A stretch of DNA of 64,000 nucleotides from Oscillospiraceae bacterium. Lineage in GTDB: Bacteria; Bacillota; Clostridia; UBA1212. Of the stretch, positions 1 to 37,190 are shown piece by piece; position 1 is the stretch's first letter; every line of letters begins with the position of its first letter. The DNA lies in NCBI GenBank assembly GCA_015069195.1, contig SVJA01000004.1:10978-74977 (forward strand), in the 5' to 3' direction. A program made the translations under genes and the position numbers. Below the pieces are notes generated by a model, which ran no database searches, was not told the origin of the DNA, and worked only from the letters and a program-made list of their open reading frames with translations.

Positions 1-547
1 CTTAGAACGCGAAAAGCAGAAAGAGAAAGAGCGCAAGCAAAAAGAAAGAGACAAAAAGAAAGCTCAGGAACAGAAAGCTTTGATGCTTGAAAAAGATAGA
101 AAAGAAAAAGAGCGTGCGAAAGCTAAAGCTTTAAAAGAGAAGCAACTTGCGGCAGAGAAAGCTCAGAAGGAAAAGGATGCCGCAAAAGCGAAGGCTTTGC
201 GCGAAAGAGAAGCCGCTAAGCTTTTAAAGGAAAGAGAAGCGGCAAAGGCTAAAGCTTTGAAAAAGAAAGAAGCCGAGGCTGAAAAACTTCGCAAGGAAAA
301 AGAGTTACAGCTTGAACGAGACCGAAAAGCTAAAGAACGCGCGAAAGCGAAGGCCTTGAAAGAAAAGGAACTCGAAAAAGAAAAGTTGCGCAGACAGAAG
401 GTCGCAGAAGCTGAAAAAGCTCGCAGACAAAAGGCTACAGAGGCTGAAAAGGCTCGTAGATTAAAGGCTAAAGAAGCCGAAAAGTTACGAATGAAAAAGC
501 AAAAAGAAAGAGAGCAAGAAAAAGCTAAAAAGACTAAGAAAGATTGA
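1..547 (+). CDS. Lys/Glu/Ala-rich charged repeat (coiled-coil-like) protein, C-terminal part; reading frame is open from position 2 so the 5' end lies outside the window
   Basis: ORF 80..547 continues upstream in frame without a stop. Tandem 11-13 aa repeats (KAKALKEKE..., EAEKARRQKAT x3) are mirrored by 33-39 bp DNA repeats. No enzymatic motif. Confidence 0.5.
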   Translation, partial: LEREKQKEKERKQKERDKKKAQEQKALMLEKDRKEKERAKAKALKEKQLAAEKAQKEKDAAKAKALREREAAKLLKEREAAKAKALKKKEAEAEKLRKEKELQLERDRKAKERAKAKALKEKELEKEKLRRQKVAEAEKARRQKATEAEKARRLKAKEAEKLRMKKQKEREQEKAKKTKKD

Positions 548-576
548 ATTTGACACAAATTATGAAAGGAGCGGCT

Positions 577-1473
577 ATGGCAAAGAAAAGCATTTTGAAA
601 AACATACTTATCATATGCGGACTGTTCATTGTACTGATAGCTGCAACTTTTTCGTGGTTTGTTATGAGAGACAGCGGTGATATCGGAAATCTGGAAATGG
701 CAGTTATCGATGCTGCGTATATAAAGGTTTCTAAGGACGAAGGTCTTACTTGGGAAAACAACTTGGACTTAGATCTGGGAACGATAGTTTCTTTGAGGGA
801 AACGACGGGTGACGGTGTAACTTTTTATGAACCTGTATACGACGGTACCGACAGTATAAGCGGATATGTACAATCGGCAAATGAAAATGTGTATTTTGAA
901 AGTGTAATTACTTTTAAGACTGACAGAACCCAAAGTATATATCTTACCGATGAGAGTTTTATTGTTCCGGCAGATACCGCGAGTGATACAAAGAATAAAA
1001 GTGAATTCGGTAATTACAGCAAGGATTATATAGCCGGTGCGATTCGTGTGGGATTTTTTGAGTTGACGGATGCTGGAGAATATAAGCCTGTTTTTATATG
1101 GGTACCAAATCCGAAAATTCAATATAATGCAAAGAATAACACGGTAACGGAAAACGGCACGGTTGAAGATTATTATTCATACTATGCAAATGGTGAAGAA
1201 CCGGGATTCGTGAAAATAATGACAAACGGCGAGTCAGATGGCATGTCAGATCCTTTGGTGTGGGGCAGTTTACAGCAAGACGGAGTAAAACCGGTGTTGT
1301 CTTTTGATAAAGAGACCGAAGCCGAACCTGACGGTAGCATCACTAAAAAGCTTATTGCTCGTGTCTGGGTAGAGGGTACTGACCGCGAATGTGTCAGAGC
1401 ATTGTATCAGGGTAAGTTCAAAATGTATTTTAAATTTCAGGCGGTAAGGGAGGTTAGCAACAATGAAGAATAA
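577..1473 (+). CDS. Secreted protein with SipW-cognate-type signal peptide (paralog 1 of 3); function unknown
   Basis: Start chosen at MAKKSILKN (RBS AAAGGAG 5 nt upstream). N-terminus has a K-rich n-region, a hydrophobic h-region, then TFSWF. Shares DYIAGAIRVxFxELTD, NPK and RVWVEGTDREC motifs with the next two genes. Confidence 0.7.
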   Translation: MAKKSILKNILIICGLFIVLIAATFSWFVMRDSGDIGNLEMAVIDAAYIKVSKDEGLTWENNLDLDLGTIVSLRETTGDGVTFYEPVYDGTDSISGYVQSANENVYFESVITFKTDRTQSIYLTDESFIVPADTASDTKNKSEFGNYSKDYIAGAIRVGFFELTDAGEYKPVFIWVPNPKIQYNAKNNTVTENGTVEDYYSYYANGEEPGFVKIMTNGESDGMSDPLVWGSLQQDGVKPVLSFDKETEAEPDGSITKKLIARVWVEGTDRECVRALYQGKFKMYFKFQAVREVSNNEE

Positions 1474-2605
1474 GAATAAATTAGTAATAAGTATAGTTGC
1501 TATCCTTGTTGCGCTTACGGCTATCGGCGGAACTCTTGCATGGTTCTTCATAAATGAAAGTTCTTATGTAGACTATGGTTCTGACATTTCCTGTGAAGCC
1601 GGACAGAGCTTAGAGATATCTATCGACGGAGGTAAGAGTTGGTCGGGATTTGTGTCAAACGAAGGTTTCAAATCATCCACTGTTGATATAACAGGGGATG
1701 GTATAAATATGTACAGACCCGTTTCTATCGACGAAACTTCAAATCCGACGGGTTACCAACCGGCAGTTGCAATTGATGAAAATGGTGTGGGAGATTTTAT
1801 AGATATTGACTTGATGTTCCGTACCACTTCCAAGATGAATGTGTATCTGAACGGTGAATCATATATTTCTCCTACAAATCCTACGTTGGGCGGAAATATG
1901 TTCGGCAATTTCAGCCGTGATTATATTGCAGGAGCTACCAGAGTTGCTTTTATAGAAGTGACAGATAATGTCGAAACCGGTGCAGAAGAATATGATTTGA
2001 AAATGATTTGGGCGCCCAATCCTAAATATCAGCTTTCGAAGAGTACAGGCGGCATATATACTTTTACTGTTAACGGATCAAGAGAAACATATTACTATAC
2101 TGTCTATGAGGATGGTGAGTATGTAAAGAAAGCTTATACATCTGATGATTTTGCAACATCTCGTTTCCTTGCGGGAAATACCGGTGCTGACATATCAAAC
2201 GGCGGTGAGAGTGCTGTTTTGTTTTCTACAAATCCGGCTGCCGGAGAGTTTGATTACAAAAAAATGAAGATAAGAATTTGGTTTGAGGGAACTGACCGTG
2301 AGGCAAGTGAAGCTCTTGCCGGTGGAAAAGTTGCGGCAAAACTGAAGTTTACCGGATTAAATAAAGCCGTTCCATCCGAAGAGAATTTGAATGCGCTGGA
2401 TGCGGTAGAATATGATGTTTCTTCAAAGTCTTTAACCGGTGTGCTATCGGGAATGGCGTTCTCAACAGACGGATATACTTGGACCGCTTACAATGATGCA
2501 AAGCCTAATTTGCCGAATTTTGACAGCGGAATGATTGTATATTTACGGTACAATGAAACAAAGGGCAGTCTTAGGACTGACATTAAAAAAATAATGATTC
2601 CATAG
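1463..2605 (+). CDS. Secreted protein with SipW-cognate-type signal peptide (paralog 2 of 3)
   Basis: RBS GGGAGG. N-terminus MKNKNKLVISIVAILVALTAIGGTLAWFF. Motifs TGDGINMYRPV, FGNFSRDYIAGATRVAFIEVTD, IWAPNPK, RIWFEGTDREASEAL are shared with paralog 1. Overlaps the upstream gene by 11 nt. Confidence 0.7.
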   Translation: MKNKNKLVISIVAILVALTAIGGTLAWFFINESSYVDYGSDISCEAGQSLEISIDGGKSWSGFVSNEGFKSSTVDITGDGINMYRPVSIDETSNPTGYQPAVAIDENGVGDFIDIDLMFRTTSKMNVYLNGESYISPTNPTLGGNMFGNFSRDYIAGATRVAFIEVTDNVETGAEEYDLKMIWAPNPKYQLSKSTGGIYTFTVNGSRETYYYTVYEDGEYVKKAYTSDDFATSRFLAGNTGADISNGGESAVLFSTNPAAGEFDYKKMKIRIWFEGTDREASEALAGGKVAAKLKFTGLNKAVPSEENLNALDAVEYDVSSKSLTGVLSGMAFSTDGYTWTAYNDAKPNLPNFDSGMIVYLRYNETKGSLRTDIKKIMIP

Positions 2606-2615
2606 AAAGGGGCAT

Positions 2616-3491
2616 ATGCATATGAAAAAATTAAAAGGTCTTATGTCCGTGGTTTCTGTGGTGTGGGCGTTTTTTCTGTTGATTGCATTTACGTTTACAT
2701 GGGTTGCCAGGAACTGGACACCGAGTTTTGAGCAAAATGAAATACAGATCAGTACAGCAGGTGCGCTGGTTATAAGCTTGACCGGTGACGATAATCATGA
2801 CGTTGTTTCTCTTAATGAGGTTGTCCAACTCGATTCATTTGTCTTTAAGCAAGTGTCCAGCCAAGATGGTGAGACATTCTTCTGGAAGGATTTTACTCCT
2901 ACTCTTAATGACGAACCCGCGGTTTACAAAAAGGTTACCGATTTGCAGAAAGAAAACTATATAGACACGGAGTTTGCTTTGAAACTTGACGATTCGCTTA
3001 CTGAACCGAAGTACATATTTATACATCCTGATTCGATTTTGTCCAGCGAAAACATCGGAATATCCTCTGATGTTGCAAAGGCTATAAGGATTTCTTTGCA
3101 GTATGAAGATATCGATGAAAACGGTCAGCCTGTAAAATATTCATATATTTTAGGCAATACAGAAGATAAGGATGAACCGGATTATTCTACTTCGGCGGTT
3201 TTACCCGATGCTGACGGTAAAAATGATAAGGATGAGACTGCTACAAACCAGCAGAAAGTATACAATCTGCGCTATTTCAATGCCGGTTGGGATAATTATA
3301 CAAACGGGCAGACTGATCATAATTTTACGGTTGAACCGTCGAGAACACTGTTCAAACTTAACCCTGGTGGAATAAGATGGATAAAGATGAGAATTTGGCT
3401 TGAGGGTGCAGATGAAAACTGCGTAAATGAAATTGCAGGGCAGTCTTTTGATATGGTGTTGAAATTTGATTCAATCAGTGTATCACAATAA
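2616..3491 (+). CDS. Secreted protein with SipW-cognate-type signal peptide (paralog 3 of 3, more divergent)
   Basis: N-terminus MHMKKLKGLMSVVSVVWAFFLLIAFTFTWVARNW. C-terminal motif RIWLEGADENCVNEIAGQSF aligns with the WxEGTDRE motif of paralogs 1 and 2. Confidence 0.65.
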   Translation: MHMKKLKGLMSVVSVVWAFFLLIAFTFTWVARNWTPSFEQNEIQISTAGALVISLTGDDNHDVVSLNEVVQLDSFVFKQVSSQDGETFFWKDFTPTLNDEPAVYKKVTDLQKENYIDTEFALKLDDSLTEPKYIFIHPDSILSSENIGISSDVAKAIRISLQYEDIDENGQPVKYSYILGNTEDKDEPDYSTSAVLPDADGKNDKDETATNQQKVYNLRYFNAGWDNYTNGQTDHNFTVEPSRTLFKLNPGGIRWIKMRIWLEGADENCVNEIAGQSFDMVLKFDSISVSQ

Positions 3492-3525
3492 TTTTTAAGA
3501 CAAGAACACGAAAGGAGGCAGAGAT

Positions 3526-4143
3526 ATGCGTGATTTGAAAAAATTAATACTTCCGATGATCTCGATATTGCTTTGCCTCACTGCAACATTTGCTTGGATA
3601 AATGAGCTCCAGAATCCTGAGGGACGTTATCTTAATTTTGAGTTCAAAGACGGTAAGGCTGTTGTTACGGACACCGACATAGAAGTTAAAATGTACAGAG
3701 ATAGAACCGGGACAGATGATTTTGAGGATATTACGGCTTCTTTTGCAAATGGCAGTCTTGAAAATTTAGTTAATATAGATAATTTTGCACCGGGTGCAAG
3801 ACAAAAGTACAAAGTGGAAATTGCTAATACCGGTAAGATTCCGCTCTCACTTCAGATGGTACTTTCAAACATTTCCTGCCCTGATGAATTATTGCAGGAA
3901 CATCTTGTTGTGGGAACAGGTGGATTTGAAGGATTCACTGCGGAATATCCTGCTCCTGATTTGGTGCAGGACACTATGAAAAACAGTCTTGTCGGAGAGA
4001 GCATTGTCTTGATTGACGGTGCAGCTGTACCGGCGGACAAGACTGTAACTATTTACTTTTACGTAATGTTTTCGCGTACTGCGACAGAGGAAGTTTCCGA
4101 CTGTCACTTTACAATCGGAAGCGTTAACTTTATAGCATTATAA
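3526..4143 (+). CDS. TasA/camelysin-family (peptidase M73-like fold) secreted protein
   Basis: RBS AAAGGAGG. Signal peptide ends ATFAWINE. The mature region VNIDNFAPGARQKYKVEIANTGKIPLSLQMVLSN matches the TasA/CalY motif NLKPGDKLTKDFQFENNGSLAIKEV (comparison from memory). Confidence 0.7.
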   Translation: MRDLKKLILPMISILLCLTATFAWINELQNPEGRYLNFEFKDGKAVVTDTDIEVKMYRDRTGTDDFEDITASFANGSLENLVNIDNFAPGARQKYKVEIANTGKIPLSLQMVLSNISCPDELLQEHLVVGTGGFEGFTAEYPAPDLVQDTMKNSLVGESIVLIDGAAVPADKTVTIYFYVMFSRTATEEVSDCHFTIGSVNFIAL

Positions 4144-4160
4144 ACGGAGAAATTGAAGAA

Positions 4161-4724
4161 ATGGTTAAAAAGATTTTTAAAATTTGTTCAACTGTACTGT
4201 TTGTTTTGCTGATGATAATAACCGTAACACTTGTTGTTATGAGATTTATGGGGGAAAGCTACAGTTTCCTTGGGTATAATGCATATTATGTCCTAACGGG
4301 AAGTATGGAGCCTGAGATTATGGCCGGAGATGTTATTTTTTCAAAATCAGTTGATGATATGTCCAAACTTAAAGTCGGCGATGTTATTACATATAACGGC
4401 AGAGTCGGAACGGTAAAGGATAAATCAATAACTCATAAAATTATAGAGATGCGTGAAGAAAACGGTGAACTTGTTTTTGTGACGCAGGGCGTTGCAAATC
4501 CGGCGGCAGACCCGCCGATAACATCGGATCAGATTGTTTCTAAGATGGTTTTTAAAAGCAGTCTTTTAGGAAATGTCGTTTCGGTTGTAAACAACAAGGT
4601 CGGATTTTTAATGATAATAATATTGCCGCTTGCGGTATTCCTTACGAGTGAGGTTGTTTCACTTGTAAGAACATATAAAGAATGTAAGGAGGAACAGGTA
4701 GATGAAGAAAATGCAGCAGCTTAA
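4161..4724 (+). CDS. sipW: Signal peptidase I, ER/archaeal type (S26B), SipW-like
   Basis: N-terminal TM segment followed by YVLTGSMEPEIMAGDVIF, the GSMEP catalytic-Ser box of ER-type SPases. A conserved His lies in GTVKDKSITHKIIE. C-terminal second TM segment. 187 aa. Confidence 0.85.
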   Translation: MVKKIFKICSTVLFVLLMIITVTLVVMRFMGESYSFLGYNAYYVLTGSMEPEIMAGDVIFSKSVDDMSKLKVGDVITYNGRVGTVKDKSITHKIIEMREENGELVFVTQGVANPAADPPITSDQIVSKMVFKSSLLGNVVSVVNNKVGFLMIIILPLAVFLTSEVVSLVRTYKECKEEQVDEENAAA

Positions 4725-7700
4725 AATTTCAAAACTGAAAAATCTTGTAGGTCGACGCTACGGTATGCTTGCACTTGTTCTTTCTTTTGTTATGTTGCTT
4801 ACTACAATATCCTTTGCTTGGTATCAGAATCAGGTTTCTTTGGAAGGTAACACTTTTTCAACCGGTGATATCGATTTTGTGTCACGCGGATATGATAGCG
4901 AGGGAAATCTTGTTACAACTATTTTGCAAGGCGACAAAGATCCTGCCGGCTATGAGAAAGTAAACCAGCCTCTTTTTAATCACATCGGTTGGGATGCAAA
5001 CATGCAGACCGAAACTTCGTACATAGTTGTCGAAAAGACCGGTTCTTTGGAGATGGATTATAAGATAAGCTTTACTGCAGCCGGAACTGTTGAGTATCTC
5101 GGCGGATTTTGGTATGCACTTACCGACGTGACAAATGAGGTTGTGGGTACAAGTTCAAACAGTGACCATTCAGCGCTTCTCAAAGATTATATTGCAAAAG
5201 GCAACAATCCTAAGGCTGAAACTGATGGCTATAATATGGCGACAATGGACAGATATGCGACGATAGGCAGTATTTTAGATGGTTCAAATATAACCGCAAG
5301 ATATTATCGTTTGGACTATGGCATGAAATCTTCTGCAATTCCTGAAGAATACACAAACATGTCTGTTGAGATATTTGCAAAGATTTTTGTGACTCAGGTC
5401 GGCGCTTTGGACAGTGAAGACGGTACAGGTTATACATACAACTGTTCTTCACAGCTTGATATAGAAAAGGCAAGAGAGCAGGCTCTCCCCGGAGATAATA
5501 TTGTATTGCTTAACAATATTACTTTCGAGGGCGATTTGGTTTTCAATAAAGGTGTAAATCTTTTCACAAACAACTACACTTTGGAAGTTCTCGGTAATTT
5601 GATTTACGAATATGTTGCTCCGACTGCGATGACCGTGAATGTTTCCGGTAACGGACGTATTCTTGTCAGTTGCCCTCGTGCGGGAGTCGGCGGCAACTTT
5701 ACAATCGAGGCTCCGAACAGTGATGTAACAATCATCGGAAGTAACACTTCGGACGGTGATATTGTTACTGAGAGCAGATTCACTGTAAGCGGAACACGCG
5801 CCTATGGTGCGGCTGGTGTTACCCTTAGAAACTTAAGAGTTGTAGATAAAGCGTACGGTACTCTTAAAACTATATATGTAAACAGTAATTCAAGAGTGAC
5901 CGTTACTGACAATACAACAATTTCAAGATTGGAAGCTGTTGCCAGAGCTACAAATATCGAAGTTCAGAATATGGGTATCATCCATGAGCTGTCTTTGATA
6001 AATATGTATATTTTGCCGCAGACATTGAGCCCGCAGATTTATGTATATAATATGGGTATTATTACTCAATCTATACAGCTTCCTGCATGGTCTACTCCGT
6101 TCGAAATTGTTACTCAGTCGCCGCTTACATGCTCCGGCAATACAAAAATTGTTCAAGCGATTACGGGTAATGATATGTCCGTAACAGGTGCTACAGTAAC
6201 CGGGGCATTCACAACTGCTGATATTGAAAGAGAAAACATAGACGATACTGTTGTTCCTATGGGTAACAGCAATACTCAGCTTATAGTTTACTATCAGAAT
6301 ATTAAAAAAGACGGTCAGACAGTTGAAACGACTATTCAATCATTACTTGAAGATTATTTCAGAGAGATAAATGTTGTAAATGTTGCGGCAGCTATTGCCG
6401 AAATTACAGATTTGAGAGTTATATCTGTTGAAGGCAAGCAAGTTCTGAATTCTGATATACAGTATCTCAGAGGTGCTGCGTTGCCGTATCTTAAGAATAT
6501 TGATTTGGAACGTGCTATCTTATTTGATACTGTTACTTCAAGAGAAAATCATTTGTTCGACAATGCTTTCAACGGTGATACAAGGATTGAAAATCTTGTA
6601 TTGCCACAGCGACTTGAGTCTATCGGTGTCGGTGCTTTGAGCAATATGTCTTGTGATAATGTTATAAGAATTCCGGAGTCTGTAAAGGAGTTTGGTGTGA
6701 ACTGGTTTAGAGGAACAAAATATGTTTGCTTTGAATCACCCACCCCTGTCATTGCCGCATATAATGCTGCTTCAGGTCTTTCTGGTGTTAAGGCAATATT
6801 TACAGAAGAACCGTATCTTTCTGCATATAGACAAAATTATGCAAACTATGCAAATATTATTTACTGTGTTGGTCAAAAGGATGACAGCGGTAATAATTTT
6901 GTGCGCCGTCTTAATCAGGGAAATGATTGGGAGATTGTTTACTATATTGGTAATCAGGGGAATATAACAAGTCTTTCCGTGGGATCAAATGTTCGTGTCG
7001 ACGGTCAGCTTATTAATATTGTAAATATAGGTGAAAATGCATATGGAAATACTTTGCCGGATTCGGTTACAACTATAAGCTTTGCCGATGGAGTTCGTGT
7101 GATAGGTAAGAGAGCTTTTTACGGTCGACCGATAAAGTCTGTTGAAAGTTGGGGAATATCTTTAACTACAATTGGTTATGGTGCTTTTGAAAATTGCTCC
7201 CTTCTGCAAGGCGAGATAATGCTTCCGGCAACAATGCAGACAATTGACTCGTATGCATTTGCTTCTTGTGGCATGCTTGAGGGTATAAATGCAGGTGGTA
7301 CAAAATTTGTCTATACCGGTGCATTTTTAAATTGTTCCGGTATGGTTTATGCAGATATGTCGAGTGTTGAGACATTTGAGACTGTTGGTACTGTTGGCGT
7401 TTTCAATAATTGCCCCAGACTTGTATCAGTGACTGCTCCGACACTTAAGAAAACAATAGGAAATGTATTTTGGAATTTAAGCTCTCTTAGAGAGGTTGTT
7501 TTCGGTGCGGCTTCTTTTGAAGAAGTTGCTGTTTCCGGATTCACATCATTTTATGGTAGTGTAGGAAATAATACTAAAATATATTTTGATGTGGATGATA
7601 CCTCTTTGGTAGCTATAAACGGTGTGTCTTCTGAACGTATTTATTCTGCTGGTAATAAACTTGGCGAAGTTATTGTTAATGACTATAATATAGGTGAATA

Positions 7701-10700
7701 TATTATTCGAAACAATGACAACGGTGAGGTTGTTTTGGTTACTTCGAATATTGATTATGTTTCAAATGGTAGCAGTGCTGATTTGATATCATTCCCTGAA
7801 GAGTACAATGGAAGTATAGTTACTGAAATTGGTAGAAATGCTTTTCGATATCAGACTTTTGATAATGTGAAAATTTCGTTCGGTAGTGGATTGAAAAAAA
7901 TAGGCGAGTATGCTTTTTATGAGAAGAGCGGTATCGAATATTTGGATTTTAGTCAAGCTGTAAATCTGAAGAATATCGGTGAATATGCATTTTGTAGAAA
8001 TGTCGGAATTGAGGGCGATTTAATTTTGCCCCAAAGTATGCATGAGATTGGTGCATATGCATTTTATAGCTGTTCCGAGATAAGTAATATAAATACAGGT
8101 GGAACTTCTTTTGTCAGAGAAAGTGCATTTGAGTTGTGTGGTAAAATTGTAAAGGCTGAATTGCCTGAAGTTTTGATATTAGGTGGAGCTACTAATGACA
8201 ATTCTGCCGTTTTCTTAAATTGTAGCTCATTGGTAGCTGTATATATGCCGAAATTATATTTGATTAATGGCTTTTACACTTTTCGATATTGTACAGCGTT
8301 ACGCGAACTTCATATGGCAAGTAGCAATGCGGAAATGAATTTTAATGGATATTCTTTTACTGATTGTGATAGTTCTAAAATTAAGATTTTTGTGCCGGAA
8401 GAATTAGTTGATTTCTACCGTGCAAAGGGACTTGCTGGTCTTCAAGATCGTAGTGTGTTTGAAGAGGGTGAGAAGCTAGGTGAAAATATTATTTTCGGAT
8501 ATAATATTGGTGAATATATTGTCAAAGAAAATCATGATGGAACGGCAACTCTTATAACTTCTCGTATTGATTTTTCTAGTGAGGTAGTACTTCCTAGTGT
8601 GTGGAATGATAACGGGGTAGAAAGAAAAATTACTGTTATCGGTGAGAGTGCATTCAAAAATGGTATATTTAATAATGCAACTCTTTCTATTGGTGAATAT
8701 GTGGAATTGATTGAAACAAATGCCTTTGATTCTGCTAATGGGCTTAAGGCGGTTAATTCTTGGGGCAATGCATTAACAACAATTGCAAATAATGCATTTT
8801 TTAATTGTGCAGATTTGACTGCAGATATTGTGTTGCCTGATTCATTGGATTACATAGGTGATTCTGCCTTTGCTTCAAGCGGTATAAAGAGTGTTGTTAC
8901 TGGTGGTGCTACTGCAGTTGGTTGGGACGTTTTTAAGAATTGTCAAAAACTTATATGGGCTGAGCTATCAAATGTGGTGATGATTGGAAAAGCTGGCCGT
9001 GATAATTGTTTATTTGAAGGTTCTGAAAATTTAGTATCTGTTAGAGCTCCGTTGTTATCCGTAGTTAAAGGTCAGTTTATTTTTATTGGCTGTGGCTCTT
9101 TGCGAGAATTGTATTTAGGCGCTTCCGACTTTGAGTCTTTAGGTGGTTATGCTTTTTACTTGTGCCAAACAGATAAGATAAAGATTTTTGTGCCTGCGGA
9201 GTTGTTGGATTTTTATAAAAGTAAGAATCCAGATGGACTAGGTGCTACTCATATTTATCCTATTGGTGAAAAAGTTGGTACAAATGAACTTAATGGTTAT
9301 AACCTTGGAAGATATATAGTTAAAGTTAATGAAGATGGTCAGACTGCTACACTTATAACATCGAATGTATCTTTTGAGGGCGATGTGACATTGCCTAATA
9401 CATTTACGAGTGACGGAAAAGAATTTCCTATTACTGCGATATTTAAAAATGCATTTATGAATGAGTCTTTTACAAATGTGAATCTTACTGTGGGTGCACA
9501 CGTTAAAGAAATCAGTGAGAATGCGTTCTATGGCAGAAAAGGTATTTTGAATGTAAATCTTAAAAATACAGAAACTGTTTGTGATTCTGCTTTCTATAAT
9601 TGCTCGGACATGACAAATCTTGTGGCAAATTATTTGAAAACGATAAAGGGAAACAATGCATTTAACGGATGTTTATCGCTTACAATATTGACTTTGCCCT
9701 CACTTGAAAATGTTACTGGATCGCAGAACTTTGCAAATAATACATCTATCAAGAAGGTTTATTTACAGAATATTGTATCGTTAGGTAATCAGACTTTCTA
9801 CGGTTGTTCAAATCTTGAAGAATTTGTAGTAAATAAAAAGCTTTCTTCTGCAAACGATATACCTACGGCGACAGATGCATTTTCAGGCGACGTTCGCACG
9901 GATCTTCCGATAAGAGTTCCTGCTGCTTCTATGAGTTACTATGGTGGTAGCTGGCAGGGCAGACCGGTGCTTGCTTACGGAGATACTATCGTCGTGGGGG
10001 ATGAGTCTTTTGTTGTTCTTCCTATGAATGGTGGATATATTATCCAATCATATATCGGTGGATCAGAATCCGTTGTGATTCCGGAGACTCTTGGGACGTT
10101 AAATGTTGTAGGTCTTGAAGAAAATGCTTTTGGAATAGTGACACAAACTATTACATCTGTTACTTTACCAAAGTATCTGTATTTCCTTGGTTTTGATGCT
10201 TTGTCGGAACTTTTGGGACTTAATGAGATTGCAGTAGATTCCGAGAATAGATTCTTCTCTTCTGTTGACGGTGTTCTTTATAGCAAAGACAAAAAAATGC
10301 TTGTAAGATATCCGCACGGAAAGACTGATGCATCGTTTACCGTTCCTGATATGGTCGTTGCAATTTCGGGTAATGCATTTAAAAATGCAAGAAATCTTAA
10401 CTCAATAATCCTTGGTAGCGGGTTAGGTGCTATAGACAGTGTTGCATTTATCGGATGTAATTATCTCGGACAGATCACATTCACCGGAGCTGTTCCACCC
10501 GTACTTATGGGAGCCTCGATATTTGATACGAACCTTACCGGATTTACAATGACTGTTCCGACTGGTAGTGTTGATGCATATATACGTGCAATGAATTTTG
10601 CAGAGTATGCACCGTATATGAACGGTGGAATTGAGATCCCGACAAGCGGTGATATGAATATGATTCATTGGGGCCCTGCGGTTGCACAGCAGACAAACGT

Positions 10701-10773
10701 TTACCCAACTTCTTCCAGAAAAAAAGATGAAGAAGATTATGTCGTGAACAGAACTACGACATCAGGCAATTGA
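4702..10773 (+). CDS. Giant (2023 aa) secreted surface protein: SipW-cognate signal peptide plus TasA-like N-terminal module, a beta-helix-like region and many BspA-type leucine-rich repeats (LRR_5)
   Basis: RBS AAGGAGG. N-terminus ...LLTTISFAWYQNQVSLEGNTFSTGDIDF (compare TasA ATFASGTLDL). Dozens of repeats of the form IGxxAFxxCxxLxxIxLP. Four ~260-aa super-repeats each begin with LGENIIFGYNIGEYIVKEN..-like blocks. Overlaps the sipW 3' end by 23 nt. Confidence 0.8.
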   Translation: MKKMQQLKISKLKNLVGRRYGMLALVLSFVMLLTTISFAWYQNQVSLEGNTFSTGDIDFVSRGYDSEGNLVTTILQGDKDPAGYEKVNQPLFNHIGWDANMQTETSYIVVEKTGSLEMDYKISFTAAGTVEYLGGFWYALTDVTNEVVGTSSNSDHSALLKDYIAKGNNPKAETDGYNMATMDRYATIGSILDGSNITARYYRLDYGMKSSAIPEEYTNMSVEIFAKIFVTQVGALDSEDGTGYTYNCSSQLDIEKAREQALPGDNIVLLNNITFEGDLVFNKGVNLFTNNYTLEVLGNLIYEYVAPTAMTVNVSGNGRILVSCPRAGVGGNFTIEAPNSDVTIIGSNTSDGDIVTESRFTVSGTRAYGAAGVTLRNLRVVDKAYGTLKTIYVNSNSRVTVTDNTTISRLEAVARATNIEVQNMGIIHELSLINMYILPQTLSPQIYVYNMGIITQSIQLPAWSTPFEIVTQSPLTCSGNTKIVQAITGNDMSVTGATVTGAFTTADIERENIDDTVVPMGNSNTQLIVYYQNIKKDGQTVETTIQSLLEDYFREINVVNVAAAIAEITDLRVISVEGKQVLNSDIQYLRGAALPYLKNIDLERAILFDTVTSRENHLFDNAFNGDTRIENLVLPQRLESIGVGALSNMSCDNVIRIPESVKEFGVNWFRGTKYVCFESPTPVIAAYNAASGLSGVKAIFTEEPYLSAYRQNYANYANIIYCVGQKDDSGNNFVRRLNQGNDWEIVYYIGNQGNITSLSVGSNVRVDGQLINIVNIGENAYGNTLPDSVTTISFADGVRVIGKRAFYGRPIKSVESWGISLTTIGYGAFENCSLLQGEIMLPATMQTIDSYAFASCGMLEGINAGGTKFVYTGAFLNCSGMVYADMSSVETFETVGTVGVFNNCPRLVSVTAPTLKKTIGNVFWNLSSLREVVFGAASFEEVAVSGFTSFYGSVGNNTKIYFDVDDTSLVAINGVSSERIYSAGNKLGEVIVNDYNIGEYIIRNNDNGEVVLVTSNIDYVSNGSSADLISFPEEYNGSIVTEIGRNAFRYQTFDNVKISFGSGLKKIGEYAFYEKSGIEYLDFSQAVNLKNIGEYAFCRNVGIEGDLILPQSMHEIGAYAFYSCSEISNINTGGTSFVRESAFELCGKIVKAELPEVLILGGATNDNSAVFLNCSSLVAVYMPKLYLINGFYTFRYCTALRELHMASSNAEMNFNGYSFTDCDSSKIKIFVPEELVDFYRAKGLAGLQDRSVFEEGEKLGENIIFGYNIGEYIVKENHDGTATLITSRIDFSSEVVLPSVWNDNGVERKITVIGESAFKNGIFNNATLSIGEYVELIETNAFDSANGLKAVNSWGNALTTIANNAFFNCADLTADIVLPDSLDYIGDSAFASSGIKSVVTGGATAVGWDVFKNCQKLIWAELSNVVMIGKAGRDNCLFEGSENLVSVRAPLLSVVKGQFIFIGCGSLRELYLGASDFESLGGYAFYLCQTDKIKIFVPAELLDFYKSKNPDGLGATHIYPIGEKVGTNELNGYNLGRYIVKVNEDGQTATLITSNVSFEGDVTLPNTFTSDGKEFPITAIFKNAFMNESFTNVNLTVGAHVKEISENAFYGRKGILNVNLKNTETVCDSAFYNCSDMTNLVANYLKTIKGNNAFNGCLSLTILTLPSLENVTGSQNFANNTSIKKVYLQNIVSLGNQTFYGCSNLEEFVVNKKLSSANDIPTATDAFSGDVRTDLPIRVPAASMSYYGGSWQGRPVLAYGDTIVVGDESFVVLPMNGGYIIQSYIGGSESVVIPETLGTLNVVGLEENAFGIVTQTITSVTLPKYLYFLGFDALSELLGLNEIAVDSENRFFSSVDGVLYSKDKKMLVRYPHGKTDASFTVPDMVVAISGNAFKNARNLNSIILGSGLGAIDSVAFIGCNYLGQITFTGAVPPVLMGASIFDTNLTGFTMTVPTGSVDAYIRAMNFAEYAPYMNGGIEIPTSGDMNMIHWGPAVAQQTNVYPTSSRKKDEEDYVVNRTTTSGN

Positions 10774-10779
10774 TAAAAT

Positions 10780-10947
10780 TTAATATTTTTTAAAATTAAA
10801 ATTCGGAGGCATAAGCTGATTTGCTTGTAATAAGTAAAAGGCGAGTGCCTCTGTTTGATTTTCTCTGAATTTTCCTTTTGTGTTTTCATCTGCGAGTGAT
10901 GCGGATAAATCGCGAATCCTTTTCTGGATGTATTGGAATTCTGTCAT
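10780..10947 (-). CDS. Small hypothetical protein (55 aa), MTEFQYIQKRIRDLSASLADENTKGKFRENQTEALAFYLLQANQLMPPNFNFKKY
   Basis: Not in the ORF track (shorter than 60 aa). ATG is preceded by GGAGG with 6-nt spacing. Convergent with the giant gene. No homology recognised. Confidence 0.3.
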   Translation of the reverse strand: MTEFQYIQKRIRDLSASLADENTKGKFRENQTEALAFYLLQANQLMPPNFNFKKY

Positions 10948-11015
10948 AGTAATCCTCCGGTTTTGTAGTTATAAATGTAGTTTATCCCGACAATAAAAAA
11001 ATATGAAAAATGTGG

Positions 11016-11044
11016 TTGACAACGCCTGACGATGCGTATAAAAT
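11016..11044 (+). promoter_or_regulatory. Putative sigma-A promoter of the str operon (TTGACA-17-TAAAAT)
   Basis: TTGACA at 11016-11021, 17-nt spacer, TAAAAT at 11039-11044, about 70 nt upstream of rpsL. Confidence 0.5.
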
Positions 11045-11112
11045 AATCTAGTCTGCGTACAAGGGATTACTATGCCTTGTAGACGGATAGAATATTATTG
11101 GAGGTGAATTGA

Positions 11113-11538
11113 ATGCCAACATTTAACCAGTTAGTTCGTAAGGGAAGAGAGACTCAGACAAAGAAGTCTACATCTCCTGCATTGCAGAGAGGTATAAACT
11201 CACTCAAGAAAAAGTCTACTGACATCAGTTGTCCTCAGAAGAGAGGCGTTTGCACAAACGTAAGAACAACTACCCCTAAGAAGCCTAACTCAGCTTTGAG
11301 AAAAATCGCCAGAGTACGTTTGACAAACGGTATGGAAGTTACTGCTTACATTCCGGGTATCGGACATAACTTGCAGGAGCACAGCGTTGTTCTTATCAGA
11401 GGCGGTAGAGTTAAGGATCTGCCTGGTGTAAGATACCACATTATCAGAGGTACACTCGACGCAGCAGGTGTTAACAACAGACTTCAGAGCAGATCTAAAT
11501 ACGGTGCAAAAGCGCCTAAGGCTGCTGCTAAGAAATAA
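11113..11538 (+). CDS. rpsL: 30S ribosomal protein S12
   Basis: [12 protein letters not shown]...[59 protein letters not shown]; canonical S12. Confidence 0.97.
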
Positions 11539-11665
11539 TATCTGAATATTATTCTCAGCGAAATTTTAAGAATTTTTCATACCGGTTATACCGGAAGGTG
11601 CCGAGTATTTAATATATATGTGCGATAAGCCTTGTTAAATACGCGAGCACTGACTGCGGATATAA

Positions 11666-12187
<522 letters not shown>

Positions 12188-12207
12188 TATCAAGGAGATT
12201 TTAGACT

Positions 12208-14310
12208 ATGGGAAGAGAATATTCACTTAAGAATACCAGAAACATAGGCATAATGGCTCATATCGATGCCGGTAAGACAACAACTACCGAGCGTATACTC
12301 TACTATACAGGTAAGAACCATAAAATCGGTGAGACACACGACGGTGCTGCTACAATGGACTCCATGCAACAGGAGCAGGAGAGAGGTATTACTATCGCCT
12401 CTGCTGCTACGACTGTACACTGGGTTACAGACCGCGGAACAGCTAATGAAAAGGACACAAGAATAAACATTATCGATACTCCCGGACACGTTGACTTCAC
12501 AGTAGAGGTTGAGCGTTCACTCCGTGTACTCGACGGTTCTGTTACACTTTTCTGTGCTAAGGGCGGCGTTGAGCCTCAGTCAGAGACAGTTTGGAGACAG
12601 GCTGACAAATACGGCGTTCCGAGAATAGGTCACGTAAACAAGATGGATATTTTGGGTGCTGACTTCTATCGTGTTGTTGACATGATTAAAACACGTCTCG
12701 GTGCAAATGCAGTGCCGATTACATTGCCTATCGGTAAAGAAGATACATTTACAGGTATTATTGACCTTGTAAAAATGGAAGCTCATATCTATGAGGGAGA
12801 ACTCGGTGAGAAAGTTACCGTTACAGAGATTCCCGCTGATATGATCGAGCTTGCAGAACAGTACAGAGGAGAGATGCTCGAAGCTATCGCTTCTGAAGAC
12901 GAAGAGCTTATGATGAAGTACCTTGAAGGTGAGGAACTCACTATTGATGAAATCAAGGGTGCTATCCGTAAAGCTACTATCGGTCTCAATATCATCCCTG
13001 TTACTTGTGGTTCATCATACAGAAACAAAGGTGTACAGCAGTTGCTTGACGCTATCGTTGACTACTTGCCTTCACCGCTCGACGTTCCTGCTATAAAGGG
13101 TGAACTCCCGGATGGTTCTGAGACAGTTCGTCACTCAAGCGACGAAGAGCCTTTCTCAGCTCTCGCATTCAAAATTTTGACTGACCCGTTCGTAGGTAAG
13201 CTCTGCTTCTTCAGAGTATACTCGGGTTATGTTGACGCAGGTTCTTATGTTCTTAACTCAACAAAGGACAAGAAAGAGCGTATGGGTCGTATCGTATTGA
13301 TGCACTCAAATCAAAGACAGGAAATTGAACGTGCTTATGCCGGTGATATCGCCGCTGCTATCGGTCTTAAAGATACAACAACAGGTGACACACTCTGTGC
13401 AGAGAACAGCCCTGTAATCCTCGAGCGTATGGAATTCCCGGATCCGGTTATTTCAGTTGCTGTTGAGCCTAAGACAAAAGCAGGACAGGAGAAGATGGGT
13501 ATCGCCCTTCAGAAACTTGCTGAAGAGGATCCTACATTCAGAGTAAAAACTGATCCTGAAATCGGACAGACAATCATTTCCGGTATGGGTGAGCTTCACC
13601 TCGAAATCATTGTTGACCGTTTGCTCCGTGAGTTTAAGGTAGAAGCTAACGTAGGTAACCCGCAGGTTGCTTACAAAGAGGGTATCAAGAAAGCTGCTAT
13701 CAAGCAGGAAGGTAAGTTCGTAAGACAGTCCGGTGGACGTGGTCAGTACGGACACTGTGTAATTGACGTTGAACCTTTGGAAAGAGGTAAAGGATACGAG
13801 TTCGTTAATAAAATCGTCGGTGGTGTTATTCCTAAGGAATACATCGGACCTGTTGACCAGGGTATCCAGGAAGCTCTCCAGAGCGGTATACTTGCAGGCT
13901 ATCCTGTAGTAGACGTAAAGGTTACTTTGGTATTCGGTTCATACCACGAAGTCGACTCATCTGAAATGGCGTTCAAGATTGCCGGTTCTATGGCTATCAA
14001 AGAAGCTATAAAGAATGCAGGACCTGTACTTCTCGAGCCTATCATGAAGGTTGTTGTAGTAGTTCCTGAGCCGAACCTCGGTGACGTAATCGGTTCGATC
14101 AATGCTAAACGTGGTCGTATCGAGAGCATTGATGACGGTGCTGCCGGAATCAAGCAGATCACATCTTTCGTACCGCTTGCAGAAATGTTCGGTTACACAA
14201 CACAGCTTCGTTCTATGACTCAGGGTCGTGGTTCATTCTCTATGGAGCCGAGCCACTACGAAGACGTTCCGAAGAGCGTTCAGGATAAGGTTATCGCTGA
14301 GAAAAAGTAA
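12208..14310 (+). CDS. fusA: Elongation factor G
   Basis: [23 protein letters not shown], 700 aa; canonical EF-G. Confidence 0.97.
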
Positions 14311-14320
14311 TAAATTAAAT

Positions 14321-14342
14321 CGCGGCGGCGTGACGCCGCCGC
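14321..14342. other. GC-rich perfect hairpin GCGGCGGCG-TGA-CGCCGCCGC after fusA (no clear U-tract)
   Basis: 9-bp GC stem; likely a partial terminator or attenuator between fusA and the tuf promoter. Confidence 0.4.
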
Positions 14343-14391
14343 AAAATAACTGATTAGCAGGCTTAGTTTTCGCTTAAAATAAAAATTAAGC

Positions 14392-14420
14392 TTGATATAT
14401 AGGTAAAAAATGTGTATTAT
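14392..14420 (+). promoter_or_regulatory. tuf promoter, TTGATA-17-TGTGTATTAT (extended -10)
   Basis: TTGATA at 14392-14397, 17-nt spacer, TG at 14413-14414, TATTAT at 14415-14420. Confidence 0.6.
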
Positions 14421-14478
14421 GTACACATTGAAATTTACCAAAAAATTCTTTTATTTTATCAAAAGGAGGACATTTTAA

Positions 14479-15690
14479 ATGGCTAAATCAAAGTTCGAAA
14501 GAACAAAACCCCACGTAAATATCGGTACTATCGGTCACGTTGACCATGGTAAAACAACTCTTACAGCTGCTATCACAAAGACTCTCGGTCTTGGTAACGC
14601 TAACGTTGCAGCTATGGCTTACGACCAGATCGATAACGCTCCGGAGGAGAAGGCAAGAGGTATCACGATTAATACTTCACACGTTGAGTATGAGACAGCT
14701 ACAAGACACTACGCTCACGTTGACTGCCCCGGACATGCCGACTACGTTAAGAACATGATCACAGGTGCTGCTCAGATGGACGGCGCAATTCTTCTCGTTT
14801 CAGGTCCCGATGGCCCGCAGGCTCAGACAAGAGAGCACATCCTTCTCGCTCGTCAGGTTGGCGTTCCTTACATCGTAGTATTCATGAACAAGTGCGACCA
14901 GCTTGCTGAAGAAGATATGGAGCTCCTCGATCTTTCAGAGATGGAGATCAGAGACCTTCTCAATCAGTACGAGTTCCCGGGTGACGATATTCCGATCATC
15001 AGAGGTTCAGCTCTCAAAGCTCTCGAGTGCGAAAGCTCAGATCCCAGTGATCCGGCATACGCTCCTATCCTCGAGCTCATGGCTGCAGTAGACGAGTACA
15101 TTCCTACTCCTGAGAGACCGACAGACAAGCCGTTCCTTATGCCTGTTGAGGACGTATTCACAATCACAGGTCGTGGTACAGTTGCTACAGGTCGTCTTGA
15201 GAGAGGTATCATCAAAGTTGGTGACGCTGCTGAAATCGTTGGTATCAAAGAAGAAGTTAAGAGCACAGTTATCACTGGTGTAGAAATGTTCAGAAAGCTT
15301 CTCGATCAGGCTGAAGCAGGCGACAACATCGGTGCTCTTCTCAGAGGTATCCAGAGAACAGAAATCGAGCGTGGCCAGGTTCTCGTAAAACCCGGTACAA
15401 TCAATCCTCACACACATTTCTTTGGTCAGGTATACGTACTTACTAAAGAAGAGGGTGGACGTCACAAACCTTTCTTCTCAAACTACAGACCTCAGTTCTA
15501 TTTCCGTACAACAGACGTTACAGGTGTTATCACTCTTCCCGAGGGAACAGAAATGGTTATGCCTGGTGACCACGTAACTATGGAAGTTAAACTCATTACT
15601 CACATCGCTATGGAGGAAGGTCTCCGTTTCGCTATCCGTGAGGGTGGTAGAACTGTTGGTGCAGGTACTGTTTCTAAGATCGTAGAATAA
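14479..15690 (+). CDS. tuf: Elongation factor Tu
   Basis: [23 protein letters not shown], 403 aa. Confidence 0.97.
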
Positions 15691-15754
15691 TTTATTATTT
15701 GAGATTTTGACAGTGTTCATGTTTATATGAACGGCAAAACAAATTCTAGAATTA

Positions 15755-15791
15755 AAGTTCCTCTTGCTTTATGGCAAGAGGAACTTTTTTT
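15755..15791 (+). terminator. Intrinsic terminator after tuf
   Basis: GTTCCTCTTGC-tttatg-GCAAGAGGAAC followed by TTTTTTT. Confidence 0.85.
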
Positions 15792-15812
15792 ATGCGTCGA
15801 TGGTCTTGTGGG

Positions 15813-15841
15813 TTGAATTATGCTTTTCGGAAATGTATAAT
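15813..15841 (+). promoter_or_regulatory. Sigma-A promoter TTGAAT-17-TGTATAAT upstream of the PucR-family regulator
   Basis: Consensus-like -35, 17-nt spacer, extended -10. Confidence 0.55.
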
Positions 15842-15874
15842 TATAAATGAATAATTATGCGAAAGCGAGGTTGA

Positions 15875-17035
15875 GTGCTATTGATTAGTAAAGGCGGAAG
15901 ACAACAACTTGAAAAACTTGCTGATATCATAGGTGATGTTTTCGGAGTTGCAGCCTCTACCGGTGTTGTTTTATTCAGCAGCGTTGATGATTTGCCCGAA
16001 GGCTCTTTTATAGAACTTCCGGATCAGGAGGATGCATCTAATCTTGCAGAAAGCGGTTTTATTCAGACAAATCGTTATTCGTATATGAAATATTTTATAA
16101 ATGATGAGGAATACTTGTGGTTTTTTGTAGGACGCAGCAAGATTGACTCTAAAAAAATTTTGGAGCTTGCTGTGTGTGCTTACGATAATAAAGAGGATTC
16201 TGACCGAAGAAAGACACTTGATTTCTTCAGGAGTCTTATGGTGAATGGCGTTGATTCCGTCAGTGCCGTTGATATGAGCCATTACGGCAGTATGAGAGCA
16301 TCAGTTTCAGGATATGCAGTTATTGTGATCGTGAATGAAAAGAAGAAAAATATTGTATCGGTAGATTCGGAAGCGCAGATTGCTATTCTAGAGAGTATTT
16401 TTCCGATGGGACAGGGATTCTATGTGGTGCCGGTAGAGATGGGAAAGACTGCTGTAGTATGTCCTCTTCACAGCGGATTTACTTTTGATGATGCAGTGAA
16501 TCAGGCTTCCTTGATAAAGGATACGGTTCTTTCGGAAGTTATGATGAATGTAAGTGTTGCTGTCGGTATGGCGGCAGACGGTATCAGAGCGTTGCCTGCG
16601 GCATACAAGACTGCTGAGAGAGCAGAGGCTGTCGGCAGTACTTTCGAGTTGAACGAAAAGTGCTTTGTATATGATAAGCTCGGTGTACATAGGCTTGTGT
16701 ACGGTCTCGGCGCAGAGAGTTGTCTTGCTTATATGAAAGAAGTTTTCGGAACTGAATTTTTGAGTGAGCGCTTCAGTAAGGCAAAGTCGAACACTAAGGA
16801 TGAGCTTTTGGTGACTATAAAACTTTTCCTTGAAAATAACCAGAATATAAGTGAAACATCGAGAGCTTTATATGTCCACAGAAATACACTTATTTACAGA
16901 ATAGATAAGTTTAACAAAATTACAGAACGTGATTGTACGAAATTCGAAGACGGAATGTTGATAGGAGTAGCTCTGCTCATAATGCAATATTTCGTAAAGA
17001 TGTTCCCTGAGCGTCTTGAAACTGATTTTAATTGA
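15875..17035 (+). CDS. PucR/CdaR-family transcriptional regulator (C-terminal PucR HTH)
   Basis: C-terminus SETSRALYVHRNTLIYRIDKFNKITERDCTKFEDGMLIGVAL is a PucR-type HTH. Start is GTG; the exact start is uncertain. Confidence 0.7.
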   Translation: MLLISKGGRQQLEKLADIIGDVFGVAASTGVVLFSSVDDLPEGSFIELPDQEDASNLAESGFIQTNRYSYMKYFINDEEYLWFFVGRSKIDSKKILELAVCAYDNKEDSDRRKTLDFFRSLMVNGVDSVSAVDMSHYGSMRASVSGYAVIVIVNEKKKNIVSVDSEAQIAILESIFPMGQGFYVVPVEMGKTAVVCPLHSGFTFDDAVNQASLIKDTVLSEVMMNVSVAVGMAADGIRALPAAYKTAERAEAVGSTFELNEKCFVYDKLGVHRLVYGLGAESCLAYMKEVFGTEFLSERFSKAKSNTKDELLVTIKLFLENNQNISETSRALYVHRNTLIYRIDKFNKITERDCTKFEDGMLIGVALLIMQYFVKMFPERLETDFN

Positions 17036-17055
17036 TAGAACAGAGGGTTTTAAGT

Positions 17056-18694: not shown

Positions 18695-18712
18695 TGATAC
18701 ACGGAGGTTATT

Positions 18713-20149: not shown

Positions 20150-20150
20150 T

Positions 20151-37107: not shown

Positions 37108-37190
37108 TGCGGATAACAGGACTTGAACCTGCATGAAGTTGCCCTCACTGGTACCTGAAACCAGCGCGTCTGCCATTCCGCCATATCCGC
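37108..37190 (-). tRNA. tRNA-Leu (anticodon CAG), class II with long variable arm
   Basis: Reverse complement GCGGATATGGCGGAATGGCAGACGCGCTGGTTTCAGGTACCAGTGAGGGCAACTTCATGCAGGTTCAAGTCCTGTTATCCGC-A. 7-bp acceptor stem, anticodon loop TTCAGGT, T-loop TTCAAGT. Confidence 0.85.

Follow-up and report, generated by a model that had tools for sequence, protein, structure and literature searches.

Three kinds of structure currently account for the surface fibres of Gram-positive bacteria: sortase pili, type IV pili and donor-strand fibres of the TasA type. Donor-strand exchange has been established for TasA fibres (PMC9674648) and modelled, with mutational support, for BsaA (PMC11580942). The archaeal bundling-pilus systems have no dedicated SipW signal peptidase in their operon (PMC9245690). 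A further group of loci, CoCoPALM, came to light during a census of systems related to Type IV restriction; one paragraph of that study treats it as an NxD-type clade of McrB GTPases (Bell, Makarova, Wolf and Koonin, eLife 2024, PMC11090510). It is defined by an FtsB-like McrB GTPase with a transmembrane segment and a coiled coil, a coiled-coil McrC homologue and signal peptidases; the authors call these 'likely pilus assembly factors' and defer the analysis to a 'forthcoming publication' (PMC11090510). Neither the text nor the supplements of that paper describe cargo proteins, and our literature searches found no later use of the name and nothing relevant on McrB together with SipW. We analysed a stretch of 64,000 nucleotides (nt) from an Oscillospiraceae bacterium (assembly GCA_015069195.1, contig SVJA01000004.1, positions 10,978 to 74,977; hereafter the window), in which three tandem paralogous genes, P1 to P3, lie upstream of a gene for a SipW-type signal peptidase. 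We conclude that P1–P3 belong to a CoCoPALM cargo family, here called the F family, that comprises at least five positional paralogs. It is probable, if not by much, that they are position-specific subunits of a SipW-processed, CoCoPALM-type heteropolymeric surface fibre of monoderm gut and rumen bacteria.

P1, P2 and P3 belong to a run of six same-strand genes across window positions 544–10,773 (Table 1). P1 aligns over its full length with P2 (33% identity, BLASTP E-value (E) 7e-34) and with P3 (23%, 7e-8), while P2 and P3 align through their C-terminal block alone (5e-6). Profiles of the orthologue groups at the three positions, dF1, dF2 and dF3, match each other in hhalign with E-values of 7e-61 (dF1–dF2), 1e-25 (dF1–dF3) and 2.5e-28 (dF2–dF3). 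Judged by these scores, P1–P3 are homologous well beyond chance, and the three tandem paralogs described in an earlier note on this DNA are real same-strand open reading frames (ORFs). The note gave their lengths as 309, 380 and 291 amino acids (aa). The last two stand (289 aa for P3 in the database version), but the best start of P1 gives 298 aa: the preferred ATG at 577 has an AAAGGAG Shine-Dalgarno sequence 6 nt upstream, the public annotation also has 298 aa, and 309 aa is the mechanical ORF from TTG 544. The note also listed four motifs as common to all three proteins. This is the case for the R(V/I)WxEG(T/A)D block, the only motif fully shared by P1–P3. TGDGxxFY and FGN(Y/F)S(K/R)DYIAGAxRVxF(F/I)E(L/V)TD are exact in P1 and P2 and degenerate in P3, which has SQDGETFF for the first and retains just DVAKAIRI of the second, and IW(V/A)PNPK occurs in P1 and P2 but not in P3. 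As the note had proposed, P3 is the most divergent paralog.

The family is not defined by these three genes, as the note had it. The window starts mid-operon, and its positions 1–11,000 are identical (100%) to positions 9425–20,424 of another source, L005, which therefore supplies the upstream flank. Together they give a co-directional string of 12 genes: EAL, uF-2, uF-1, SipW, McrB-like GTPase, McrC-like partner, P1, P2, P3, P4, SipW and a giant adhesin. The two uF genes, just upstream, encode further paralogs: uF-1 matches the dF positions with hhalign E-values of 1e-27 to 8e-32, and uF-2 matches the rest of the family with 1e-12 to 3e-20. A single, conserved Cys ends the RxWxEGxDxxC block in dF1, dF3, uF-1 and uF-2, and not in dF2. 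Mature P1 and P3 contain no second Cys, so that this residue cannot make an intramolecular disulfide; it might bind metal or link subunits. The dF2 orthologues, in turn, are extended at the C-terminus by about 80 conserved aa (FSTDGYTWTAY, NLP, VYLRYNET; P2 aa 300–380, window 2360–2605) that is not found in dF1 or dF3.

The extent of the family became apparent in database searches. P1–P3 have no Pfam match at E ≤ 1 and fall under no NCBIfam model, and the same is true of 32 diverse family members, none of which matches a Pfam (E ≤ 10) or NCBIfam model. A word-indexed search returned 93 relatives, all 'hypothetical' and from Ruminococcaceae/Oscillospiraceae-type metagenome-assembled genomes, and the names of cluster members were uninformative. 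With a profile balanced over 32 sequences, exhaustive HMMER searching retrieved 6,418 cluster representatives at E ≤ 1e-3, of which 2,922 have E ≤ 1e-10 and 308 have E ≤ 1e-30. The residues invariant in the 32-sequence alignment are W27, G80, A155, R157, W264, E266, G267 and D269 (P1 numbering). The AlphaFold2 model of P1 (predicted local distance difference test score (pLDDT) 83, predicted template modelling score 0.76) has a helix at residues 2–30, a low-confidence stretch at 32–44 and then an all-beta domain. The earlier note had allowed that the motifs could turn out to belong to an enzyme family unrelated to sipW loci; no enzyme family claims P1–P3. An identity with glycoside hydrolase family 16 (GH16) was considered and rejected, since no GH16 Pfam match was found among the 32 members and the structural match, given below, is insignificant. 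The GH16 motif ExDxxE is also lacking: the F-family block reads ExxDxx, and only E266, G267 and D269 are invariant in it. As far as sequence comparison can tell, the F family is a large unannotated family of predicted secreted proteins whose core has no detectable likeness to TasA, in agreement with the note, which had considered the proteins uncharacterised and distinct from TasA.

The N-termini suggest how these proteins may be processed. Apart from uF-2, all secreted components start with a basic n-region, and their hydrophobic helix leads into [ST]-x-[AS]-W. Position −3 is T or S, −2 is aromatic or aliphatic, −1 is A or S, +1 is an invariant W and F, I, L or Y comes next, a pattern that obeys the −3/−1 rule of type I signal peptidases. 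The GVTYAWFT consensus is strongest in uF-1. The 113 SipW paralogs encoded in the loci all retain S48, M49, H92 and D117. It is plausible that [ST]-x-[AS]-W is the SipW cleavage site, and it resembles SipW substrates at the level of the motif (T-x-A/S, then an aromatic residue). The signal peptide of TasA ends in GGGTWA before the mature AFND. The mature TasA chain in structure 8AUR starts at A28, similar to the F-family site. The note's description of P1–P3 as SipW-type substrates holds for the linkage to sipW and for the residues at −3, −1 and +1, but not for membership in the TIGR04088 class of SipW signals. uF-2 has a basic cytoplasmic tail of 25–40 residues, a transmembrane helix and no [ST]-x-[AS]-W site, and for this reason probably stays anchored in the membrane.

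The genes between uF-1 and P1 associate the F family with CoCoPALM. The GTPase matches Escherichia coli McrB (6hz4) with E 2e-7 in phmmer, the NCBIfam McrB model with 2.6e-7 and the PADLOC model PDC-M26A with 4.5e-38. All 47 of 47 sequences have a Walker A motif GISGTGKT, a Walker B motif ILDEMN and a signature GT(A/I/C)NNDDST; the NNDD in the latter is compatible with 'NxD followed by D', but also with NxxD in an ungapped alignment to NTAD. Its N-terminus has a hydrophobic helix at about aa 55–80, followed by RKYVRVRK and a heptad-like stretch, and aa 53–131 give matches below the cut-offs to Pfam FtsL (E 0.04) and TIGR02209 ftsL_broad (E 0.13). The partner has a K/E-rich C-terminal region of about 250 aa, whose end is encoded at window 1–547. 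The partner of the window genome has no direct Pfam match of its own, but a profile of partners from 55 loci matches the corresponding protein of a distant locus, L068, with E 2e-90, and this protein matches PF09823 DUF2357, the N-terminal domain of McrC, with 47.8 bits (cut-off 23.3). The locus thus encodes a DUF2357/McrC homologue with a coiled coil and, with two SipW-type genes, the signal peptidases of the CoCoPALM definition. Going by sequence, it fits the CoCoPALM description. Of this machinery, the window contains only the McrC-like tail and the second SipW. With the McrB-like GTPase, its McrC-like partner and the second SipW, which the note had no means of seeing, what would pass for a trio like tapA-sipW-tasA looks instead like a CoCoPALM system. 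We rejected a defence island as the primary explanation of the GTPase pair, given its fixed position in the operon.

This arrangement is conserved across many genomes. We scanned a genome collection with two P1/P2-type motifs, a sample biased to close relatives, and found 59 loci. Their carriers are Clostridia of gut and rumen and a small number of Bacilli, and one of them is an isolate, Ruminococcus sp. zg-924 (L052). Profile classification of all ORFs in 68 sources identified the F family in every source (299 ORFs), SipW and P4 in 61 each, the partner in 55 and the GTPase in 53, and the shortfalls are all on short or truncated contigs. SipW occurs in the same gene string in 61 of the 68 sources, including every contig of at least 10 kb, and the seven exceptions are fragments of 1.6–5.3 kb. 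This answers positively the note's question whether homologs elsewhere neighbour sipW, and the distant locus L068 shows the same. The order uF-2, uF-1, SipW, GTPase, partner, dF1, dF2, dF3, P4, SipW and giant protein, preceded in some cases by EAL, is found in 34 loci, a count that includes repeat recoveries of the window's own locus and of that of L003. The best match across about 48 loci keeps its own position for 31 of 34 dF1, 32 of 33 dF2 and 29 of 29 dF3 proteins. This positional orthology indicates that the triplication is ancient and that each copy is under position-specific constraint, contrary to the local and recent events implied by the sequential duplication that the note suggested. 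Median identities are 68% for the GTPase, 44% for uF-2 (the most conserved subunit), 38% for SipW and 25–30% for the secreted subunits.

Some loci depart from this order. A type B variant, present in 14 loci, mostly of Ruminococcus, has three upstream F genes and up to three terminal SipW genes. Type B F proteins reach 500–1600 aa, and CBM26 (starch-binding) and Flg_new/Ig modules replace the separate leucine-rich repeat (LRR) adhesin. The locus of the distant relative P0092, L068, has a minimal set of four F genes, SipW, GTPase, DUF2357 partner and second SipW, with neither P4 nor adhesin. Another distant relative, P0093 (421 aa), is followed by three proteins with the N-termini GSLSWFT, SSLSWFT and PVLAWFS. 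Its gene is oriented divergently to a type IV pilin-like gene (N_methyl), and these features cover L070 3899–4519 (minus strand) and 5091–11,043 (plus strand). No SipW or GTPase was found before the early end of the L070 contig.

The fourth gene and the adhesin provide the connection with TasA. The NxxPG motif of TasA is absent from P1–P3 and present in P4 (NFAPG, aa 86–90), as the note had observed. The P4 family aligns with PF12389 in hhalign (88% probability, E 2.9e-6) over the signal, the N-terminal strand and the NxxPG region. The AlphaFold2 model of P4 (pLDDT 78.5) matches AbpA (7ueg, E 4.6e-4) and the TasA fibre (8aur, E 2e-3) in Foldseek, both with probability 1.0, and cannulae and the Sulfolobus thread (9h8b, 7pnb) are also among its matches; the P4 profile found nothing among the Protein Data Bank (PDB) sequences. 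The N-terminal 320 residues of the giant proteins match TasA over 201 columns (E 1.3e-5) and P4 (E 9e-8). What the F family has in common with P4 and the adhesin is restricted to 16–55 N-terminal columns, i.e. the signal and the first mature segment, at 85–96% probability (F–P4: 92%, E 6e-7, columns 8–54; adhesin–F: 94–96%). In the models of both P1 and P4, the segment immediately after the predicted cleavage site has pLDDT below 50 and precedes a confident beta domain, as expected of a donor strand that has no partner subunit to complete.

These observations suggest the following model. The two dedicated SipW peptidases would cut before the invariant Trp and thereby expose the conserved N-terminal segment of about 25 residues common to the F proteins, P4 and the adhesin. 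Like its counterpart in TasA, AbpA and BsaA fibres, the exposed segment would serve as donor strand, and the F subunits, P4 and the adhesin would polymerise into a single heteropolymer. From gene order, composition and conservation we assign tentative roles to the components. uF-1, with 35% Ala, Gly, Ser and Thr against 28–30% in P1–P3, would be the bulk subunit, P1–P3 and P4 would be low-copy (minor) adaptors linking the shaft to the LRR adhesin, and uF-2, bitopic and uncleaved, would act as membrane anchor. In the cytoplasm, the GTPase with its McrC-like partner would permit or power assembly across the membrane, perhaps by way of the cytoplasmic uF-2 tail. We infer cleavage, polymerisation, subunit roles and GTPase function. 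A bolder proposal, which we regard as possible and put forward only tentatively, is that CoCoPALM loci encode an unrecognised class of nucleoside triphosphate (NTP)-dependent pilus machine. A membrane-anchored hexamer of the McrB-type GTPase and its coiled-coil McrC-like partner, both taken over from restriction systems, would then drive or gate the assembly or retraction of a heteropolymeric fibre in monoderm bacteria. The subunits, P1–P3 among them, would have a fold unseen in solved pilins and would be matured by dedicated peptidases of the endoplasmic reticulum (ER) type.

Several results weigh against the fibre model. P1 and P3 do not match TIGR04088, a 34-position hidden Markov model of the SipW signal region, P2 scores 9.7 bits (E 0.96; cut-off 19), and the 32 members give one sub-threshold match only. 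The P1 model has no significant Foldseek match in the PDB: the best is a GH16 jelly roll (E 0.03 (0.034), template modelling (TM) score 0.20–0.22), AbpA (7ueg) is at E 0.28, and TasA is not among the 50 best matches. Likewise, the F alignment matches 56 PF12389 proteins with 3% probability and E 0.014 in hhalign, over signal-region columns only, and the per-position F groups match the TasA profile with 0.2–5%. A fibre, cleavage and polymerisation are predicted for the F family and have been observed for no member, and the distinction of major from minor subunits draws only on composition and gene order. To our knowledge, the known TasA-type fibres need no NTPase, and a conserved GTPase has no established place in the donor-strand model. 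Finally, the linkage to SipW and GTPase concerns the P1/P2-type subfamily and one distant locus, and not all of the 6,418 relatives.

Other interpretations have to be weighed against these data. P1–P3 could be independent, non-polymerising exoproteins or surface proteins exported through SipW, lectin-like or enzymatic jelly rolls that are merely co-regulated with a fibre of P4 and adhesin. The top Foldseek matches of the P1 model are indeed concanavalin-like jelly rolls (GH16 glucanases, the laminin LN domain, PNGase F), the F proteins of Ruminococcus-type loci have CBM26 and Flg_new modules, and homology to TasA is undetectable in the F core. However, these jelly-roll matches are insignificant (E at least 0.03, TM score about 0.2), and none of the 32 members matches GH16 or another enzyme model in Pfam. 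The minimal locus L068 has F proteins and machinery without P4 or adhesin, which makes the F proteins the core cargo, and co-assembly is the better explanation for five strictly positional paralogs that have one N-terminal segment in common with P4 and the adhesin. We consider this interpretation unlikely. A type IV pilin-like filament, in which the N-terminal helix of the F proteins is retained as the filament core, the GTPase/McrC-like machine extracts the subunits and SipW processes other or only some components, seems to us a degree less likely still. It would account for the conserved hydrophobic N-terminal helix and adjoining segment in every subunit type, for the strict conservation of a membrane-anchored NTPase alongside the subunits and for the continuous helix of the AlphaFold2 model over residues 2–30. 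The layout of tandem minor subunits with an adhesin recalls minor-pilin/PilY1 operons, and the best match of the F-family profile to PDB sequences is the N-terminus of an archaeal-type 'flagellin' (8fk7), which at E 1.4 is insignificant. Yet the locus has no prepilin peptidase, class III motif (G↓F..E) or T2SSE-type ATPase, and two catalytically intact SipW genes are kept in the operon. The small residues at −3 and −1 before the invariant Trp suit a cut by type I signal peptidase after the h-region, and P4 and the N-terminal domain of the adhesin resemble the donor-strand pilins TasA and AbpA rather than helical pilins.

The origin of the GTPase invites a third interpretation, namely that the locus is an McrBC-derived conflict (defence) system whose F proteins are envelope sensors or effectors. 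The matches of the GTPase to McrB and to PDC-M26A, a candidate-defence model, the DUF2357/McrC-like partner and the discovery of CoCoPALM in a Type IV restriction census would agree with this. It is nevertheless highly improbable: the partner has no nuclease domain match, the locus adjoins the probable str operon, which would place it in the core chromosome, and keeps a stable order in about 60 species, unlike defence islands, and it has an EAL gene at one end and a giant LRR adhesin at the other. The census authors themselves interpret the system as one of pilus assembly (PMC11090510). All three interpretations are less consistent with the data than the SipW-processed heteropolymeric fibre.

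The remaining features of the locus are listed in Table 1. Overlaps of 11 nt between P1 and P2 (1463–1473) and of 23 nt between sipW and the adhesin gene (4702–4724), with spacers of 10–34 nt elsewhere, and the failure to find a convincing internal terminator are consistent with a single transcript and with translational coupling. The EAL gene opens the string at L005 and at 22 other loci where that flank is available, which hints at control by cyclic di-GMP. The gene maps of the 68 sources show no unassigned gene at a constant position from the EAL gene to the giant protein. We found no sortase sorting signal (LPXTG-type) at the C-termini of P1–P4 or the adhesin and no Pfam match to a sortase among the scanned operon proteins; the unassigned flanking ORFs were not scanned for sortases. 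Downstream of the adhesin (window 10,774–15,690) are a 55-aa ORF on the minus strand, rpsL (PF00164 in L005) and ORFs of 700 and 403 aa, which by size and position we take as EF-G and EF-Tu of the str operon. This flank would place the locus in the core chromosome. The sole Rfam match at the gathering threshold in the 64-kb window is a tRNA (37,108–37,190, minus strand).

Table 1. Features of the F-family locus in the window and in the sources L005 and L001.
Feature	Sequence	Coordinates	Strand	Description
EAL protein	L005	2622–3977		First gene of the string; also weak HD_5
uF-2	L005	3974–4669		231-aa bitopic F paralog; end VVIWLEGEDPEC; no xAW site
uF-1	L005	4712–5644		310-aa F paralog rich in Ala/Gly/Ser/Thr; SSATYAWFT, SIWLEGQDGDC
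First SipW paralog	L005	5722–6453		NF046067 2e-30; TIGR02228 97.6 bits (cut-off 51.85)
McrB-like GTPase	L005	6504–8027		507 aa; one strong transmembrane helix, short coiled coil, McrB-type AAA+ domain
McrC-like (DUF2357-family) partner	L005	8058–9971		637 aa, cytoplasmic
Partner, 3' end	Window	1–547	+	K/E-rich coiled-coil tail; ORF 80–547
P1 (position dF1)	Window	577–1473	+	298 aa, predicted F-family subunit
P1 signal/transmembrane region	Window			aa 1–26
P1 putative SipW site	Window	646–660		TFS↓W27
P1 block	Window	805–828		TGDG
P1 block	Window	1006–1071		FGN..DYIAGA
P1 block	Window	1096–1116		IWVPNPK
P1 block	Window	1360–1392		RVWVEGTDREC
P1 block-end Cys	Window	1390–1392		C272
P2 (position dF2)	Window	1463–2605	+	380 aa, predicted F-family subunit
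P2 putative SipW site	Window	1532–1546		TLA↓W27
P2 block	Window	2273–2305		RIWFEGTDREA
P2 block end	Window	2303–2305		Ala in place of Cys
P3 (position dF3)	Window	2616–3491	+	291 aa; 289 aa from ATG 2622 (database version)
P3 putative SipW site	Window	2691–2705		TFT↓W29 (counted from ATG 2616)
P3 block	Window	3390–3422		RIWLEGADENC
P3 block-end Cys	Window	3420–3422		C269
P4	Window	3526–4143	+	205 aa, remote TasA/AbpA-like; NFAPG; putative site TFA↓W24
Second SipW-type (ER/archaeal-type) signal peptidase I	Window	4161–4724	+	187 aa; TIGR02228 98 bits (cut-off 51.85); NF046067 SipW E 3.9e-29
Adhesin	Window	4702–10,773	+	2023 aa; signal SFA↓W40, TasA-like N-terminal domain, nine BspA-type LRR_5 stretches (PF13306, 4.7e-93)
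Type B locus, example	L001	12,870–16,804		Further examples: L036, L050–L052, L054–L057, L061, L062, L065

The locus joins TasA-like parts, SipW peptidases, a very large unnamed family and a restriction-derived GTPase/McrC-like pair. Among uncultured bacteria of rumen and gut it is common in Oscillospiraceae, Acutalibacteraceae and Ruminococcus, and it occurs in some Bacilli. Its terminal proteins, with BspA-type LRR or CBM26, are candidate means of attachment to the host, to partner cells or to starch granules. A defined cargo family gives the CoCoPALM idea testable components, and the cultured carrier Ruminococcus sp. zg-924 makes experiments possible.

The comparison with known systems shows partial likeness to several of them. 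Type IV pilus and type II secretion system (T2SS) minor-pilin clusters also combine tandem divergent paralogs with a conserved N-terminus, a large adhesin, a dedicated peptidase and an NTPase. They differ in that the cut is made before the hydrophobic helix and not, as predicted here, after it, the peptidase is of family A24 instead of S26, and the NTPase is PilB/GspE instead of a McrB-type AAA+ protein. The tapA-sipW-tasA operon of Bacillus subtilis (8AUR, 5OF1, PF12389) has a dedicated SipW, a signal that ends in T-x-A followed by an aromatic residue and independence from sortase, all as in the present locus, and P4 and the N-terminal domain of the adhesin are remote TasA homologues. In contrast, P1–P3 match neither PF12389 nor the TasA profile, and where the Bacillus operon has two components with a signal, the present locus has at least seven; it also has two SipW genes and a GTPase/McrC-like pair, which plays no part in TasA assembly. 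The sipW-bsaA-bsaB-bsaC operon of Clostridium perfringens (TIGR04090; PMC11580942, PMC7395162) also comes from a clostridium and combines SipW with several subunits remotely similar to TasA; its polymers are anchored in the membrane, and a donor-strand model exists for them. P4 stays below the TIGR04090 cut-off (E 0.076, 12.7 bits against 60), the present locus lacks a von Willebrand factor type A (vWA) protein, and the F family is not part of the bsa operon as described. Archaeal AbpA (7UEG), cannulae and Sulfolobus threads are donor-strand jelly-roll filaments and the best structural matches of P4, whereas the match of P1 itself to 7ueg is the insignificant one given above, and a McrBC-like module has been reported with none of them. 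CoCoPALM agrees in machinery, with its transmembrane and coiled-coil McrB-like GTPase, DUF2357/McrC-like coiled-coil protein and signal peptidases of the same operon; the F family, the five positional paralogs, the TasA-like P4 and the adhesin go beyond what that paper describes and are defined here. SipW-dependent fibre subunits as a kind and the name of the machinery are therefore known, and what is new is the F family itself and its tie to a GTPase module derived from McrBC.

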